From sequence record PQ850617.1: DNA of 64,000 bases. One strand, written 5' to 3'. Source of the stretch: Escherichia phage ManiMatter_Bas94. Position numbers and translations under genes: made by a program. The first letter of the stretch is position 1; each line of letters starts with the position of its first letter. Under the pieces are notes generated by a model. It saw only the letters and a program-made list of their open reading frames with translations, did no database searches and was not told where the DNA came from. Below, piece after piece: positions 20,018-63,103 of the stretch.

Positions 20018-21070
20018 ATGTCTTTATTTGGAAAATCAGCTTCTAGCAAAACCACAGTGGCTCCTTCCTCTCAGGTTGATGCCCTGCTGAAGCAGATTGT
20101 TGCTAATGCTCAGAATATGCAGAACAACGATCAGGGATTCATTTCCCAACAGCTGGCTGGGTTTAATGGCAACCAACAAGGTGCTCTGAACAACTTAGCA
20201 GCTTCTACTACTCAAAAGCAATTGGCTGATATGTACACACCTCGTACACAGCAAGGGCTAGACCAACTGAATTCTCTTGCCCAGCAGTATCAGAATATTG
20301 TTAATGGTGGTGGCCTGACTGCTGACGGTGTTAATAACTTTAGTAGAGGTTTAAACAACTCAGCTCTTGCTCAAGCTACCAGTAAAGCAGCTTCCAATGT
20401 ATCTCTTGGAAATGGTTCTGACTCAGGCTCTCTTCGTAGAGCTGCTGCTCAGGGTGCTGCTCTTAATGGTGCTAATACAAACCTCTCTCGTACCATCAAT
20501 GGTAAGAACATGGGAATTAGTGCTCTTCAACAAGATCAAAACTTCCAGAGGGGTTTGCTTGGTGCTCAGTCTGGTTTAGCTGGACAGAACCTCAATCTCG
20601 GTGCACAAGGTGTTCAGGCAACTCAGCAAGCTATCCAGAATCAACTCATGGCTGGTAATTTACAACAGCAACAAGCTCAAGCTCAAGCAGATATCAATTG
20701 GCAGAATGCTATTGGTTCTCGGCAGTATGGGTGGAATCAGCTTAACAATCAGCTTAATGTACTAAACAGTGTAAGCCCGATGGCTGGATATACGATTAAG
20801 AATGCTGCTCCGGGTATTAGTACAGGACAACAGCTCCTAGGTGCTGGTATTACTGGTTTAGGTATTGCAGGTCGTTTGGGTGCTTTCTCTCCTGACCAAC
20901 AGACTCAGAATGCTTGGAGTTCCTATAACAATTCAGGCGGGCAATCTGGAATGGCTGGTCCTATGATTGGGGGTTCTAATCTTTCTCAACAGAAAGGTCA
21001 GTCTAACTGGTTATCCACAATGGGTAATAATATCTTAGGTGGTGTCTTAGGGGCATTCGGAGCAAACTAA
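20018..21070 (+). CDS. Gln/Asn/Gly-rich internal virion protein
   Basis: 350 aa, low complexity Q/N-rich with C-terminal Gly-zipper-like hydrophobic tail. Confidence 0.45.
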   Translation: MSLFGKSASSKTTVAPSSQVDALLKQIVANAQNMQNNDQGFISQQLAGFNGNQQGALNNLAASTTQKQLADMYTPRTQQGLDQLNSLAQQYQNIVNGGGLTADGVNNFSRGLNNSALAQATSKAASNVSLGNGSDSGSLRRAAAQGAALNGANTNLSRTINGKNMGISALQQDQNFQRGLLGAQSGLAGQNLNLGAQGVQATQQAIQNQLMAGNLQQQQAQAQADINWQNAIGSRQYGWNQLNNQLNVLNSVSPMAGYTIKNAAPGISTGQQLLGAGITGLGIAGRLGAFSPDQQTQNAWSSYNNSGGQSGMAGPMIGGSNLSQQKGQSNWLSTMGNNILGGVLGAFGAN

Positions 21071-56847: not shown

Positions 56848-57210
56848 CTATTGGTTTTTAATCAACTCAATAGACTTACGGATATAAAGAATATCTCGGA
56901 AGTTTCTGTAGTTGTTCATAAATTGATGCTTCTGGAACTCAGCTTCTTCCAGAGCTTTCTTTGCGTCTGCGTAGTTTTTACGGGCAAGACATACAACCCG
57001 CTCTGGTAACATGTTTGCACGATGGATTAGATACTTGTGAGCTTTCATATTGCTTTGCTCACGAGCAATCTTACCTTTAGCAACTTTGATACCATTTGCA
57101 ATCCAAGCAAGTTCTTGCTCAAGCTCATCGTTGGACATTCCACCGAGGTTTGATGCAACCTTGTTCAGAGTTTCAATATTAACGTTGCCCTTAATGGGAC
57201 GTGTATTCAT
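56848..57210 (-). CDS. Hypothetical protein
   Basis: 120-aa ORF. Confidence 0.4.
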   Translation of the reverse strand: MNTRPIKGNVNIETLNKVASNLGGMSNDELEQELAWIANGIKVAKGKIAREQSNMKAHKYLIHRANMLPERVVCLARKNYADAKKALEEAEFQKHQFMNNYRNFRDILYIRKSIELIKNQ

Positions 57211-57212
57211 AC

Positions 57213-57365
57213 TTACTCCTGTTGTTTACACTCGTCAATAACCCACTGATAAGTGGATTGCCCAGAAAAGAAACACTGAATAAATCCAGATGTTCTCTGC
57301 GTTACCAGTGCTAGTGCACATATCACTACCGCTGCTGCTAGCAGTTTCATATCTAATTTAGACAT
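57213..57365 (-). CDS. Small secreted Cys-containing protein (50 aa)
   Basis: Manual translation MSKLDMKLLAAAVVICALALV... signal-like N-terminus. Confidence 0.3.
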   Translation of the reverse strand: MSKLDMKLLAAAVVICALALVTQRTSGFIQCFFSGQSTYQWVIDECKQQE

Positions 57366-57475
57366 ATTTCCTCTCTTTGAATTTAAAAAAGGACTCTCCG
57401 AAAAGAGCCAAACTTTAAATCCAAAAAAAGATATTACCCAATATCTGTGGATAACCTGCTCTTAAAATATCTATC

Positions 57476-57596
57476 CGACGGATGTTTGAGGAACACTCCT
57501 CGCCCTAGCATCGGCCCCATACGGGAAATAAATTAAGATTAGGTTAGTTGAGTCAGAATAACTCACATAGCCTTCTCCGGAAGAAGGCTATAGATG
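57476..57596 (-). repeat. Intergenic cassette, copy A (related to 60371-60485)
   Basis: Shares blocks cggatgtt(t/c)gag, c(g/t)ccctagc, gaggaacac, ctcacatagcc(t/c)tct + hairpin + ggctata with copy B; both immediately 3' of a - strand gene stop. Confidence 0.5.
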
Positions 57597-57830
57597 TTAC
57601 TCGCCTTTCTTAGCACGATCTTTGGCAGTTTTGCCAGTGCGGATGCGGTGTGAAACGTTAACCAGAGTGCCACCATCAACTACGGTAACGCTCTTGTTTT
57701 TAGCCAGATCAAACACAGCCTTCTCTGTGCCACCCAAGCGAATTTGCTTAGGTTCACTGAAGGTTTGGGTTGATTTAGATTGGAACTGGAACGGTTGACG
57801 GATTGCATCAATTGCACTTACTTTAGACAT
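57597..57830 (-). CDS. Hypothetical protein
   Basis: 77-aa ORF, AAGGA RBS. Confidence 0.4.
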   Translation of the reverse strand: MSKVSAIDAIRQPFQFQSKSTQTFSEPKQIRLGGTEKAVFDLAKNKSVTVVDGGTLVNVSHRIRTGKTAKDRAKKGE

Positions 57831-57848
57831 AGGGGAAATTCCTTAAAA

Positions 57849-57880
57849 AATCATGGCTGCGTAGAGGGAATTCCCTACGC
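57849..57880 (-). terminator. Stem-loop terminator
   Basis: GCGTAGGGAATTCCCTCTACGC palindrome followed on - strand by ...GATTTTTTAAGG. Confidence 0.45.
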
Positions 57881-57902
57881 AAATTAGGCCGCCTAAAAAG
57901 AG

Positions 57903-57920
57903 GCGTCATAGTACTAAAAG
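57903..57920. repeat. 18-bp motif GCGTCATAGTACTAAAAG (copy 1 of 2)
   Basis: Identical 18-mer at 63104-63121; both between a - strand stop codon and a terminator hairpin. Confidence 0.5.
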
Positions 57921-58056
57921 GAGGAGAGAAGAGGGCTTATTTAGCTACCTTTTTCTGTCCGTTTACGAACCAGATAATTGTTCCATCAGGTTGTCGTTGA
58001 CCAAAGCCTTTCTGGTTAATCATATCGTCATAAGAATATGCTTTACGTCTCATCTG

Positions 58057-58302
58057 TCACTCCTGAACAACTGACATACGAATCATTTCTACCGGAGTGT
58101 CACCTTTCATAACACCCAGCACACCAGTCAGAAGATTAACTGTAGTAATCCAGTCTTTTTCTACAGAGATTTTGCTGGATACATTGGCAACACGCATATG
58201 ATACTGAGGTGATGCTGTTCCTCTCTGAACTACGAAAGGGTTTCCGGGAATAATTGTAGCCAGCGAAACTGTGTTATCTTTAATCTTTGGGATGATTTTC
58301 AT
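58057..58302 (-). CDS. Hypothetical protein
   Basis: 81-aa ORF. Confidence 0.35.
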   Translation of the reverse strand: MKIIPKIKDNTVSLATIIPGNPFVVQRGTASPQYHMRVANVSSKISVEKDWITTVNLLTGVLGVMKGDTPVEMIRMSVVQE

Positions 58303-58310
58303 CTTGATTC

Positions 58311-58622
58311 CTATTTAAGTTTAAGGCTAACATTAAGGTGCATACACGCCCTGTTCTGTACAGCGGCATAACTTCTACCGAGCATGTCTGCCATTCTCTG
58401 AATAGGCATGAACCCAGCATTACGAATAACAAACTGATCTTCTTCTTCCGTCCACTTGACACGTAGAGAAGCCCTTGATATACCAAACTTGGTACAGGCT
58501 GTGTTAACAGCATTCTCTGTAACATTCATAATCTGAGCAACTTCTTGAACCGAATACTCTTTGATTAGTCTCCGAAGATTTTCAATCTGCATCGGAGTCC
58601 ATATAGTTCTTCGTGCTTTCAT
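58311..58622 (-). CDS. Hypothetical protein (possible DNA-binding, two W/E-rich helical repeats)
   Basis: 103 aa; repeats WTPMQIENLRRL... / WTEEEDQFVIRN... Confidence 0.35.
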   Translation of the reverse strand: MKARRTIWTPMQIENLRRLIKEYSVQEVAQIMNVTENAVNTACTKFGISRASLRVKWTEEEDQFVIRNAGFMPIQRMADMLGRSYAAVQNRACMHLNVSLKLK

Positions 58623-58917
58623 ATACCCTCCAATTAAACATTTATATAAGACTTGCTTAGATAAAGATTCAATAAAATAGGGGGAGGGGACGAATCCTCC
58701 CTTATCCTATTAATTAGTATTGCATGTAAGATCTAACAATCGGTTTCCTTTGTAGGAATAAGCGTTATGCTCATCCAGCACTAAACTCCCGCCCCCTTAG
58801 TGGGCTGGGTTATTAAAGGGTAACGCCCTTATGGGCTAGTTACGTGAATGTTAGTTTGATAGGAGATCTGAAGTCCTATCTCAAAGGACTCTCGTAAGAA
58901 TCCTTCACGATAAGCTC

Positions 58918-59205
58918 TTAATATACTAATCCGTGTAAGAGAAACACTCTATTAGTTAACTCTGCTTTAGCTCTGTAATAAGCCTTAGAACCTAACAGGC
59001 GGCTCTTAACAAAGAACTTGATGTCATTGCTTACGTCTTGTATTAAACGCTCCTGTACAGCTTCTGAGGAGCTATTAATTGAATCAATTAACACCTTTGT
59101 AGATGTGTAATTCACATCACCACTCCTTACCGGTTGTAGTTGTAGAGCCACCACACCACTGTGCATCAGATAAGGTTTTAGTCTCCTCATCCATTGCTGC
59201 ACCAT
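58918..59205 (-). CDS. Hypothetical protein
   Basis: 95-aa ORF; 5' end overlaps previous gene, true start uncertain. Confidence 0.3.
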   Translation of the reverse strand: MVQQWMRRLKPYLMHSGVVALQLQPVRSGDVNYTSTKVLIDSINSSSEAVQERLIQDVSNDIKFFVKSRLLGSKAYYRAKAELTNRVFLLHGLVY

Positions 59206-59398
59206 TCATGCATGAGATACCATTGTAACGCATATCAATTTCGCCAGAAGGAACCTTCTCACCTTTATGCCAGCGAGATACACAAATACCTTCCACTGCT
59301 ACTGCACACCATCCATCAGGACGGCTCTGTACGCAGCCTGTAAGGGCCACACAGACAATGAAGATACAGATTAAGGATATTACACCACTCCAACTCAT
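59117..59398 (-). CDS. Small Cys-rich lipoprotein
   Basis: Start set to ATG 59398 (GGAGGTG RBS); signal MSWSGVISLICIFIVCVALTGC with lipobox LTGC; mature part about 70 aa with 5 Cys. Confidence 0.5.
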   Translation of the reverse strand: MSWSGVISLICIFIVCVALTGCVQSRPDGWCAVAVEGICVSRWHKGEKVPSGEIDMRYNGISCMNGAAMDEETKTLSDAQWCGGSTTTTGKEW

Positions 59399-59421
59399 AA
59401 CACACCTCCAAGAGCTTCTAG

Positions 59422-59500
59422 TGAGGATGACAGGATTTGAACCTGCATACTCCAATTACTTCTTTAACGACCGCTTAGAAGGCGGGGAAGATACATCCTC
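59422..59500 (-). tRNA. tRNA-like element, possibly atypical tRNA-Arg(UCU)
   Basis: Perfect 7-bp acceptor stem GAGGATG/CATCCTC, canonical T-arm GCAGG-TTCAAAT-CCTGT, hairpin CCGC-CUUCUAA-GCGG with anticodon-loop-like UCU; no canonical D-arm found, 23-nt extra segment. Confidence 0.45.
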
Positions 59501-59541
59501 ATTAAGAATTCTCGTTAAAGCTGGTTTAAATCACATCAACC

Positions 59542-59793
59542 TCAAGCACAAGCAGGGAGAGTGATGATTTTATACTTGCCATCAAATTCTCCAAACAAAC
59601 CTAAGAATGTAGGACTATAAGTACCAGTACAAACAAACTCATCAAACAGTTCGTTATAGCTAGGCTTAATCTTCCAAGCCCATACATAACCCATCTTGTC
59701 AATTGCAATGTAACGAGTGTTTAGAGGAACAGTCATCATCACACCATCAACTTCGACCACTTTAGTGATTGGTGCAGCTTGGAAGTTTTTCAT
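59542..59793 (-). CDS. Hypothetical protein
   Basis: 83-aa ORF. Confidence 0.4.
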   Translation of the reverse strand: MKNFQAAPITKVVEVDGVMMTVPLNTRYIAIDKMGYVWAWKIKPSYNELFDEFVCTGTYSPTFLGLFGEFDGKYKIITLPACA

Positions 59794-59845
59794 ACTTTAC
59801 CTTTAATTAAAACAACAAAGGCCACCCAATCGGGCAGCCTTTCTT

Positions 59846-60055
59846 TTATTGACTCACACCACGAATCAAATGATTCTGTAGCATTTCATCTTCTGCATTA
59901 TAAAGGAATGCGAACATCAATTCCTTAGCCACATCTCTTGAGCAGTTAAGACACTTAGAGATTTGAGCTAGTTGCATATTACGTTCGGTGTGCTCCACTA
60001 AGGCAATGCGAATGATCTCTCGCATACCTATTACATGGGCTGTTTTAACCGGCAT
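59846..60055 (-). CDS. Small helical protein (possible regulator)
   Basis: Start at internal ATG 60055 overlapping stop of a 46-aa upstream ORF; track ORF 59846..60097 trimmed. Confidence 0.3.
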   Translation of the reverse strand: MPVKTAHVIGMREIIRIALVEHTERNMQLAQISKCLNCSRDVAKELMFAFLYNAEDEMLQNHLIRGVSQ

Positions 60056-60370
60056 AGGTCCAATTACCTTGCTTGTCACGGATAGTGGACATTGCATGAA
60101 CCCAGAAGCCTTCCAGTTTCAGAGCACCATTAGTTACTGCATCCATACGTTCAGGGCGGTTCATACGTTTGGTTGATACTTTCATACCTATCTCTCTTTG
60201 TTAGTGAAGGCATTATTGCCAGTTGATATAGCAGATAGCCCTATTAAAAAGGACTACCGACTATCTAAACTGGTGAAGACTCCCTACCCCTAGGAAGTCT
60301 CCTGAATCCCAAACCAATATGTACCCCTACATATCGGAAAGTCTACCGAAAATTAACAGGTTTTAGTCTA

Positions 60371-60485
60371 ACACCGGATGTTCGAGCAAGCTCTCCCTAG
60401 CGGTGTGGCATATGCCTGATTTAATAAGTTAATGAGGAACACCCTCACATAGCCCTCTGATAAGCACAAGGGCTATAAGTCGGTG
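60371..60485 (-). repeat. Intergenic cassette, copy B (related to 57476-57596)
   Basis: Same ordered sequence blocks and hairpin ATAGCCCT...AGGGCTAT as copy A, immediately 3' of gene 60486-60782. Confidence 0.5.
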
Positions 60486-60782
60486 TTACTTGTCGGCTTC
60501 AATCTCTTGATGCTTAGCTATAGCTACTCGCAAGTCCTCATTAGCACGAGTAAGGCGTAATACTTCATGGTTGAGATTCTGAAGACGCTTGTTTCTATCT
60601 TCAACTTGCGTAATAAGATCATTAAGAGTTGCTTTAACTTTCTCATTATACATCTCATCCACTCGGACTAGAGATTTGTACATTCTCTCCCAGCTTGCTG
60701 CTTTGTTCCTAAGGATAATAAATCCTATAACGCTGATAGTTAAACAGCTTACAAAAAGGAATTTATATATCTCTAAAGTCAT
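60486..60782 (-). CDS. Membrane-anchored coiled-coil protein
   Basis: 98 aa; N-terminal TM FLFVSCLTISVIGFIIL then heptad-rich helix. Confidence 0.4.
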   Translation of the reverse strand: MTLEIYKFLFVSCLTISVIGFIILRNKAASWERMYKSLVRVDEMYNEKVKATLNDLITQVEDRNKRLQNLNHEVLRLTRANEDLRVAIAKHQEIEADK

Positions 60783-60981: not shown

Positions 60982-61371
60982 TTATTCCCTAGAGCTATTA
61001 TCGAACACTAAATCACCACAATACATAGGATTGGCATACCATTTTGGCACCCCTTCGCTCTTACTCTGAAAGTAAGTCCCACTGTACAGCGGAACATAAT
61101 TCTTCTTAAGGGCACGTTTAGCAAGTCTCTCGCTTTCTCCAATGGCTTGCTTAGTCATCGGATTTTTATCACGAATCAGCTTTACATAACGTTTATAAGG
61201 TTTCTCCTGTTTTAATAGTACCGGAATCCACTCAAACTGGTTCTTTTGTCTTATCACCTGTTCAGCGGTCAGTTTTCGTTGGGCCATTCTATTTATCACG
61301 GTATCCGCAACCATAGCCTTACATGCGGTTGGCTGATTCCCTGCCTCATAATAAATAGTCAATGTCAACAT
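60982..61371 (-). CDS. Cell-wall hydrolase (SleB/CwlJ-like, putative)
   Basis: 129 aa; LTIYYEAGNQPTACKAMVADTVINRM resembles Hydrolase_2 N-terminal motif. Confidence 0.45.
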   Translation of the reverse strand: MLTLTIYYEAGNQPTACKAMVADTVINRMAQRKLTAEQVIRQKNQFEWIPVLLKQEKPYKRYVKLIRDKNPMTKQAIGESERLAKRALKKNYVPLYSGTYFQSKSEGVPKWYANPMYCGDLVFDNSSRE

Positions 61372-62842: not shown

Positions 62843-63103
62843 TTTTGCTACCCCTTAGATAGAATCAATTAACTATTGCCACTTCTATAATACAAAGACG
62901 GTATTCAAGGTTACTACTCATACTTATACCTCCTGTTTTACGGGCATAAAAAAGCCCCAGCCGTAGCCGGGGCAAACCTGAAAGCAACGCATGACCGTTG
63001 CTATAAATACACTCGCAAATGCACTTACAGCAACGCAAAAAGCCGCTCAAAGGCGGCTATGTGGAAGCTTCAAATGGGGAGAGGGCACGACGCGGCAGAA
63101 AGA

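Follow-up and report, generated by a model that had tools for sequence, protein, structure and literature searches.

Two copies of a conserved structured RNA in the early operon of Escherichia phage ManiMatter_Bas94 and a match of one copy to the host nrdD leader

The early operon and its two intergenic elements

Two gaps between early genes of Escherichia phage ManiMatter_Bas94 carry related copies of a non-coding element, here called copy A and copy B, which we analysed within a 64,000 nt stretch of sequence record PQ850617.1 (the window, meaning this whole stretch). The window belongs to a phiEco32/LAMP-like coliphage of the genus Kuravirus. Between positions 57000 and 61000 it shares 96% identity with Escherichia phage LAMP and 90-97% with about 100 further phiEco32-like podophages in this genus, and the early genes of the region lie on the minus strand in a long leftward early operon. 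Gene numbers used below follow the phiEco32 numbering, as labelled in the LAMP record. Copy A occupies the 231 nt gap from the gp93 homologue (57597-57830) to the gp90 homologue (57213-57365), and copy B the 300 nt gap from the gp116 homologue (60486-60782) to the gp112 homologue (60045-60185). Neither gap contains an open reading frame (ORF) of 40 or more amino acids on either strand.

The existence of two copies had been proposed in an initial annotation of this DNA, which described a conserved intergenic cassette of about 110 bp, and this proposal is borne out. The pattern GGCTATGTGAG-N40-70-GCTAGGG-N10-25-AACATCCG occurs in the window only at 57479-57572 and 60375-60454, both on the minus strand, and has no match in 100 shuffled sequences. 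A covariance model built from ten homologues likewise finds just these two sites in the 64 kb, with scores of 139.5 bits for A and 116.8 bits for B. The pairwise alignment that had been suggested as a check was less telling, because plain local alignment of the two copies gives a weak score (z = 2.8) that is barely above that of shuffled sequences, and block patterns and a covariance model were needed to recognize the relationship. The likeness of A and B consists of short blocks set in a common fold. The extent first given to the cassette was too small, as homology spans the entire 231 nt and 300 nt intergenic regions, and one of the blocks that had been listed as shared, 'gaggaacac', is not positionally homologous, since it forms hairpin P5 in copy A (57488-57501) and falls in the P2 region of copy B (60434-60446).

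Each cassette had also been described as ending exactly at the stop codon of the upstream gene. This is correct for the window, where the UAA stop is part of a conserved 5′ motif, (A)AGURAC, but does not hold in phiEco32 and KBNP1711, where a different gene lies upstream (gp91 rather than gp93 for A, gp113 rather than gp116 for B) and stops up to 9 nt earlier. Upstream of copy A there is gp93 or gp91, and upstream of copy B gp116 or gp113, with at least five contexts per copy, and whichever gene precedes the module, homology sets in at (A)AGURAC, about 12 nt ahead of P1. Because this start is constant despite the differing upstream genes, the module is a discrete unit whose 5′ edge is sharp and doubles as a boundary for the gain and loss of gene cassettes. 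Genes 91-92 and 113-115 of phiEco32 are absent from the window; both deletions stop exactly at the module motif (57597 and 60486), and the shortened upstream genes therefore take the UAA of the module as their stop codon.

Read in the RNA sense (minus strand), the module begins with AGURAC, which is followed by P1 (UAUAGCC...GGCUAU), P2 (GAGN...NCUC), P6 enclosing P3 and the core, and P7. It finishes with terminator T2 in copy A and with hairpins H2, H3 and H4 in copy B. The parts of the two copies are listed below; ECBP2 is a phage of the genus Suseptimavirus, 7-11 stands for a group of Salmonella phages, and percentages refer to alignment cells that are paired.

Copy A
57385..57602, minus strand: whole module, from 5′ motif GAGUAAC through P1-P7 to terminator T2 (covariance model 139.5 bits, fold z = -5.7)
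57596..57601, minus strand: 5′ motif AGUAAC, containing the UAA stop of the gp93 homologue
57566..57592, minus strand: P1 hairpin UAUAGCCUUCU-UCCGG-AGAAGGCUAUG; stem invariant at its base, with covarying distal pairs
57550..57564, minus strand: P2 hairpin GAGU-UAUUCUG-ACUC; the ECBP2 clade has C-G in place of U-A, and 7-11 has a longer helix
57526..57546, minus strand: 5′ strand of the long-range helix P6 (UAACCU, UCUUAA, UAUUU), with its partner at 57452-57470
57516..57525, minus strand: P3 hairpin CCC-GUAU-GGG; the outer pair covaries between C-G and G-C, 100% paired
57475..57514, minus strand: core, with P4 (CCGAUG/CGUCGG) around the loop CUAGGGC / AAACAUC and P5 (57488-57501)
57436..57470, minus strand: 3′ arm AUAUUUUAAGAGCAGGUUAUCCACAGAUAUUGGGU, comprising the 3′ strands of P6, single-stranded UCCACAG and the 5′ arm of P7
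57423..57446, minus strand: P7/T1 hairpin AGAUAUU-GGGU-AAUAUCU followed by U7, read from the sequence
57385..57409, minus strand: T2, an intrinsic terminator (GGCUCU-UUUCGG-AGAGUCC followed by U6) called by the terminator scan

Copy B
60186..60491, minus strand: whole module, with 5′ motif AAGUAAC, P1-P7 and hairpins H2, H3 and H4 (covariance model 116.8 bits, fold z = -5.0)
60448..60477, minus strand: P1 hairpin UAUAGCCCUU...GAGGGCUAUG, invariant within the B type
60434..60446, minus strand: GAGGGUGUUCCUC, forming the P2 hairpin or, through GGUGUU, pairing with the 5′ AACACC (60482-60487)
60371..60416, minus strand: P3 GGCAUAUGCC (60407-60416) together with the core, with P4 (ACACCG 60401-60406 / CGGUGU 60371-60376) around CUAGGGA / GAACAUC and P5 (60384-60393)
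60315..60336, minus strand: P7 hairpin CGAUAUGUA-GGGG-UACAUAUUG, homologous to P7/T1 of copy A and lacking a U-run
60275..60302, minus strand: H2, a 12 bp hairpin GGAGACUUCCUA-GGGG-UAGGGAGUCUUC with four covarying pairs, 97.6% paired, no U-tract
60234..60258, minus strand: H3 hairpin with four covarying pairs

The shared fold, its covariation and its distribution

When IMG/VR, metagenomes and GTDB genomes were scanned with sequence patterns and the covariance model was then applied, 34 distinct copies of the module were obtained. All of these reside in phages like Kuravirus, Suseptimavirus or 7-11, with the single exception of a divergent copy (L044:3016-3146, 64 bits) on a 48.7 kb contig that had been binned to a Flavobacterium metagenome-assembled genome. 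The copies were aligned on the proposed fold with the following results.

Core, 34 distinct copies (A, B and L044): 99.0% paired; 14 of 24 pairs changed on both sides; slid controls 33-47%; observed value attained by 0 of 500 shuffles
Full A module, 21 copies: 96.8% paired; 11 compensatory pairs; slid controls 40-48%
Full B module, 14 copies: 97.2% paired; 11 compensatory pairs; slid controls 37-45%

Both structural checks that had been recommended for the cassette came out in its favour. Covariation with homologous phages is extensive, more than half of the core pairs (14 of 24, 99.0% of cells paired) being compensatory over the 34 distinct copies, and the single-sequence folds of both copies are far more stable than those of shuffled sequences (z = -5.7 for A and -5.0 for B). 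The outer pair of P3, the distal pairs of P1 and the P5 stem are among the covarying sites of the A module. Furthermore, G.U pairs greatly exceed A.C pairs in number (117 to 8 and 81 to 2), which means that the selected molecule is RNA of the gene-sense strand, and neither DNA nor an antisense transcript. A conserved structured RNA on the gene-sense strand is therefore strongly supported, and the two cassettes are paralogous copies of one structured RNA family that forms part of the leftward early operon RNA. Taken as a whole, the initial interpretation of the cassettes is partly supported.

The helices differ in how freely they vary. P6 consists of UAACCU/AGGUUA, UCUUAA/UUAAGA and UAUUU/AGAUA in copy A and of AUUAAC/GUUAAU in copy B; in copy A three pairs of P6b have changed on both sides, P6a is invariant, and the minimum free energy fold of the single sequence predicts the same P6 pairing. 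Across A, B and L044, four of the six P4 pairs are compensatory, with CCGAUG/CGUCGG in A, ACACCG/CGGUGU in B, UUCGGUG/CGCCGAA in 7-11 and AAUAGCG/CGCUAUU in L044. The junction of P4 and P5 is a 7x7 internal loop, CUAGGGN / NAACAUC, that is invariant in every copy found, although every scan demanded the core-loop sequence, so that this invariance and the narrow distribution of the family are partly products of the search. The P5 stem of copy A covaries, and its loop is hypervariable among phages (GUGU, ACAC, ACAG, AUAA, AUAC, AUAU, GUAU and GUAA). The whole P5 hairpin (57488-57501, minus strand) reads GAGGAGUGUUCCUC in the window and GAGGAACACUCCUC, its exact reverse complement, in phiEco32 (L002 1589-1602), as if it had been flipped by template switching.

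The 5′ region may adopt two states. In copy A, AGUAAC can pair with GUUAUU (57556-57561) as an alternative to P2, with 96.8% of cells paired and one-sided changes that preserve pairing, and the corresponding AACACC/GGUGUU of copy B is 100% paired and covaries as C-G, U-A and U.G. Pairing of the 5′ motif excludes P2, while P2 itself covaries in copy A, and these pairing patterns make a switch between the two arrangements possible. P1 of copy B is homologous to P1 of copy A and is nearly identical to the A-type P1 of ECBP2.

Towards the 3′ end the two types diverge. The P7/T1 hairpin of copy A is 100% paired where present, is absent in 7-11, and has a degraded U-run in the ECBP2 clade. In copy B, P7 has 98.4% of cells paired with several one-sided changes, and a similar sequence, AUAUGUAGGUGUA, occurs in L044. 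Most Kuraviruses have about 58 extra nt inside H3 of copy B, enclosed by the conserved stem, which the window and a few other phages are without; judged by its position within a covarying stem, this insert looks like an expansion segment. The sequence UAGGG(G) has three occurrences in copy B, one in the core loop CUAGGGA (60394-60400) and the others at the tips of P7 (GUAGGGGUAC) and H2 (CUAGGGGUAG), and its repetition may mark a protein-binding motif.

Copy A is present in 103 phage records, some of them from the Salmonella 7-11 group (Grimontviridae), where identity is about 70%. The 98 records with copy B all belong to E. coli or Shigella phages. The window and ECBP2 are 81% identical in copy A and 78% in copy B, compared with nucleotide identities of 53-65% for the flanking genes gp90, gp89, gp88, gp87 and gp116; the gp88 proteins of the two phages are only about 41% identical. 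The L044 copy keeps P1-P5 and the same internal loop with entirely different stem sequences, its P1 being GUUAAGCG/CGCUUAAC. On its contig are small phage-like ORFs in an array, along with a protein that is Srd-like or HNH-like; the contig shows no detectable protein similarity to the window in the 8 kb compared, and has no relatives in the phage collection. Cronobacter phage GAP52, a relative of 7-11, has no copy of the element in its early half. Looser core patterns applied to IMG/VR returned only the known phages and chance matches: L047 and L048 lie in coding or unstructured context, L050 and L056 match the core only and were taken as chance, and soil, archaeal and Pseudomonadales matches were set aside for the same reason.

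The module does not fall into an established class of RNA. The only match in the window to reach an Rfam 15 gathering score is a tRNA at 59422-59500. Permissive Rfam scans of each copy gave nothing above 21 bits, compared with gathering scores of 34-88, and nothing that reached E = 10 on either core; the weak matches all fall on terminator and hairpin parts. ARAGORN reports no tRNA or transfer-messenger RNA genes in the window. Likenesses to the 11 nt tetraloop receptor, the hammerhead core and the tRNA T-arm were compared by eye only, and their defining positions differ. No description of these RNAs was found in Rfam 15 or in the searched literature, which did not extend to the two primary phiEco32 papers. 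It is an undescribed RNA family, and its likely mode of action, as a base-pairing or an elongation-control RNA, is of a known kind.

One function that such a fold could serve is the processing or stabilization of mRNA, with the hairpins of the module acting as entry or barrier sites for RNase III or RNase E, so that the polycistronic early transcript would be cleaved between gene blocks and its new ends protected. The module is intergenic and begins at, or no more than 9 nt from, the upstream stop codon; it contains several covarying hairpins of 9-12 bp (P1, P7, H2 and H3); and the tRNA-Arg encoded in the same operon must itself be processed out. The intergenic RNase III signals of T7 are comparable in that conserved hairpins with internal loops are placed between early genes and start right after a stop codon. 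However, known processing hairpins are far simpler than this fold, which spans 220-300 nt and combines multiple helices, one of them long-range, with an invariant internal loop. The module is larger and more branched than the T7 signals, its helices are of 6-12 bp, and none reaches the approximately 20 bp typical of RNase III substrates. This explanation would also leave unaccounted for the core in an unrelated phage-like contig, with the same invariant loop, and the host match of copy A described below, and we regard it as quite unlikely.

A match to the host nrdD leader and candidate functions

Of 5426 complete E. coli genomes, 5423 contain a match to the 3′ arm of copy A (57436-57470), at a single locus. 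This locus is the intergenic DNA directly upstream of nrdD, the gene for anaerobic ribonucleotide reductase. As the match is to the strand opposite nrdD, the phage RNA is complementary to the nrdD leader. When extended, the match to the E. coli leader comprises 45 identical positions in 55 and includes E. coli-specific leader sequence. Not one of 37 columns of the arm varies across 17 distinct E. coli-phage copies, among which stems, loops and linkers elsewhere in the module do vary, and no other invariant block of the module is as long. Within the match, 18-19 nt (AGAACAGGUUAUCCACAG) recur in the nrdD leaders of Salmonella and another enterobacterium, and 7-11-like copies share this core at 17/18 to 19/19 positions.

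FNR-like and NrdR-like sequences can be read by eye further upstream of nrdD than the matched stretch, and boxes of these types have been placed in the nrdD promoter (PMC2892513). From this arrangement the matched stretch probably lies in the 5′ untranslated region of nrdD, at about -12 to -66 from the AUG and adjoining the Shine-Dalgarno sequence. Copy A has the extended, conserved complementarity near a ribosome-binding site by which antisense RNAs are recognized. The matched target is itself predicted to pair weakly with the nrdD Shine-Dalgarno sequence. No core element was found near the host nrdD with the covariance model. Neither nrdD nor nrdG is encoded in the window, and GAP52 encodes both genes and is without a copy of the element. 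On the strand antisense to the nrdD leader (L058:1500-1560, plus strand), the phage-like stretch is followed by GGAAAGACGUUUUCC and U7, a terminator-like hairpin at a site that carries no annotation, so that E. coli itself might make an antisense RNA there.

The match contains a consensus DnaA box, TTATCCACA, at 57446-57454 (minus strand), and all 21 A-type copies, those of Salmonella phages among them, have it unchanged in the form GGTTATCCACA. A second perfect consensus box, again TTATCCACA, is found at 21011-21019 (plus strand). The flanks of the copy A box extend the match beyond what DnaA would explain, and the probability that they match by chance is about 1e-7, as a rough estimate and not as the output of a tool. 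One reading of the box is that the module is a signal at the level of DNA, either a DnaA site that copies the host regulatory region and would serve as a roadblock, an origin component or a decoy, or a recombination hot spot like the PeSL elements. The perfect box with flanks common to the nrdD upstream region agrees with the former, and the variation of gene content exactly at the 5′ edge of both copies with the latter. PeSL elements of T4-type phages are likewise repeated intergenic elements that border variable cassettes, a role played here by genes 91-92 and 113-115. In contrast, the preponderance of G.U over A.C pairs (117 to 8 and 81 to 2), together with the compensatory changes, shows selection on RNA of one strand. 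The box of copy A is single, with no cluster or origin signature and no other box with one mismatch or fewer within about 1 kb, and copy B and L044 have none. Nor do the variable cassettes come with the early promoter of a PeSL. Action at the DNA level consequently seems to us very improbable.

We tentatively favour, with a probability of roughly 0.38, a regulatory RNA in which the shared core is a scaffold and copy A targets the host nrdDG leader in trans through its 3′ arm. Early transcription would yield a terminator-ended RNA A, which would pair with the nrdDG leader and change its translation or stability. The core would serve as the scaffold and probably as the binding site of one common factor, and copy B, whose 3′ arm differs from that of A, would reuse the scaffold for another purpose. 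Of the two possible directions of control, activation is favoured over repression because these phages carry no nrdDG, and the weak pairing between target and Shine-Dalgarno sequence would allow it. In an unlikely but wider form of the proposal, a virulent phage that lacks an anaerobic reductase would retune the supply of deoxynucleoside triphosphates in the anaerobic gut, with the core as a portable RNA chassis that carries a different arm in copy B and in unrelated phages; its partner would probably be RNA polymerase or a single common protein.

Several observations weigh against an antisense role in trans. No promoter precedes either copy, so that the 5′ end of the RNA would have to come from processing. 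Eleven nucleotides of the host match are the strong DnaA-box consensus GTTATCCACAG, and part of the match could therefore reflect binding at the DNA level. Even at E = 10, E. coli genomes contain nothing that matches copy B, and L044 has no host match either, which means that the antisense idea cannot cover the whole family. The antisense stretch of copy A is predicted to be mostly paired inside P6 and P7, with only UCCACAG free, and the Salmonella-phage copies are not closer to the Salmonella leader than to that of E. coli. The anticorrelation of nrdDG with the element reflects very few independent events, GAP52 being a single lineage. Finally, the invariance of the core loop is partly circular, since the search patterns required it.

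The phage and prophage small RNAs DicF and IpeX, and small RNAs derived from 3′ untranslated regions, resemble copy A in having a structured body, an invariant leader-complementary stretch and a Rho-independent terminator with a U-run. Unlike these RNAs, the module has no promoter of its own, its complementary stretch is long (30-55 nt) and mostly buried, its phage is virulent, and copy B is without a detectable target.

The terminators of the region bear on a different function. The hairpins of the cassettes had been described as lacking clear U-tracts and as perhaps not being simple terminators. This is right for P1, whose hairpin is followed by no U-run, but copy A also has a hairpin followed by U7 (57423-57446) and a strong terminator (57385-57409), both beyond the coordinates first considered. 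T2 has the G+C-rich hairpin and U-run of an intrinsic terminator, unlike the P1 hairpins and P7 and H2 of copy B. T1 (57446-57423) was not called by the terminator scan, as it has a U7 run but an A/U-rich stem. The stem of T2 is conserved out to Salmonella phages while its loop varies, and in the record of 7-11 T2 is labelled as a terminator. The next gene has its ribosome-binding site about 20 nt past T2, with no promoter in between. Further upstream in the operon, about 350 nt downstream of copy B, a strong terminator-like hairpin of 11 bp (59817-59842, minus strand) is followed by GUUGUUUUAA. The earlier suggestion that the modules include the promoter of the next gene is not sustained, because neither a sigma70-like consensus nor the motif of the phage sigma factor gp36, TAATGTATA, occurs in or beside either copy.

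This arrangement could indicate that the module controls elongation or termination in cis, as a processive antitermination signal or an attenuator, with the nascent RNA acting on its own RNA polymerase directly or via a factor. Within the window, all strong terminator predictions that follow the early-promoter region (59842-59817 and T2) come after copy B, and copy A lies directly upstream of the conserved T2, about 20 nt before the next gene. Predicted sigma70 promoters of 7-11 are located some 18 kb upstream and, next, only about 9 kb downstream (positions of host-type promoters from PMC4331800), and this spacing implies that genes after T2 need read-through.

The HK022 put RNAs, putL and putR, are present as two paralogous copies per genome with conserved structure and partly different sequence. 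The occurrence of two copies in one operon recalls them, and like these and the Bacillus EAR element the module is a structured RNA within a long operon, upstream of intrinsic terminators. The layout fits copy A, with T2 directly downstream, and copy B only loosely, its next strong terminator being at 59842. Other features depart from put and EAR: the module is three to four times the size of put, the copies are kilobases from promoters, copy B has no adjacent terminator, and there is no Rfam match.

Control in cis also meets difficulties in the sequences themselves. Copy B is not directly followed by a terminator with a U-tract. An exclusive terminator/antiterminator pairing, AAGAGC with GCUCUU of T2, is seen in the window but is lost in 7-11 and in pSal-SNUABM-01 (pSal01), so the module has a conserved core without the conserved terminator-linked exclusive pairing expected of a riboswitch or attenuator, and the alternative pairing of the 5′ region spares the terminator. 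The related phage GAP52 does without the element, and the invariant host-like stretch of 37 nt would be left unexplained. From this analysis we judge control in cis, the main rival to the favoured explanation, to be possible, if on balance unlikely. It is not mutually exclusive with a regulatory RNA that acts in trans.

Structured non-coding RNAs of virulent phages are almost unexplored. A covarying fold of 220-300 nt that occurs twice per genome in three phage genera, is also present on one unrelated contig, and is more conserved than the surrounding proteins is a good candidate for a new class of functional RNA. The antisense match of the regulatory RNA proposed here provides a testable hypothesis, in which a lytic phage would steer host nucleotide metabolism by an RNA rather than by a carried enzyme. 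If termination control proved to be true, it would explain how host RNA polymerase passes the strong terminators in the early operons of phiEco32 and 7-11, for which no antiterminator is described in the accessible literature.

Neighbouring features

Other features of the early region, and of the corresponding region in related phages, lie outside the two modules. The gp117 homologue (60982-61371, minus strand) is a Hydrolase_2 cell-wall hydrolase and a likely endolysin, and a homologous endolysin sits directly downstream of copy A in 7-11-like phages. In the Salmonella phage pSal-SNUABM-01 (L005:2701-3429) a ProQ/FinO-family RNA-binding protein is encoded about 5.5 kb upstream of the element copy; it was considered and rejected, there being no homologue in the window. 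The tRNA at 59422-59500 (minus strand) scores 33.4 bits with the Rfam tRNA model, is annotated as tRNA-Arg in related records, and was missed by ARAGORN. A pair of closely spaced strong intrinsic terminators precedes the main early operon (62954-62973 and 63041-63058, both minus strand), and these probably end the first short early transcript described for SU10 and phiEco32.

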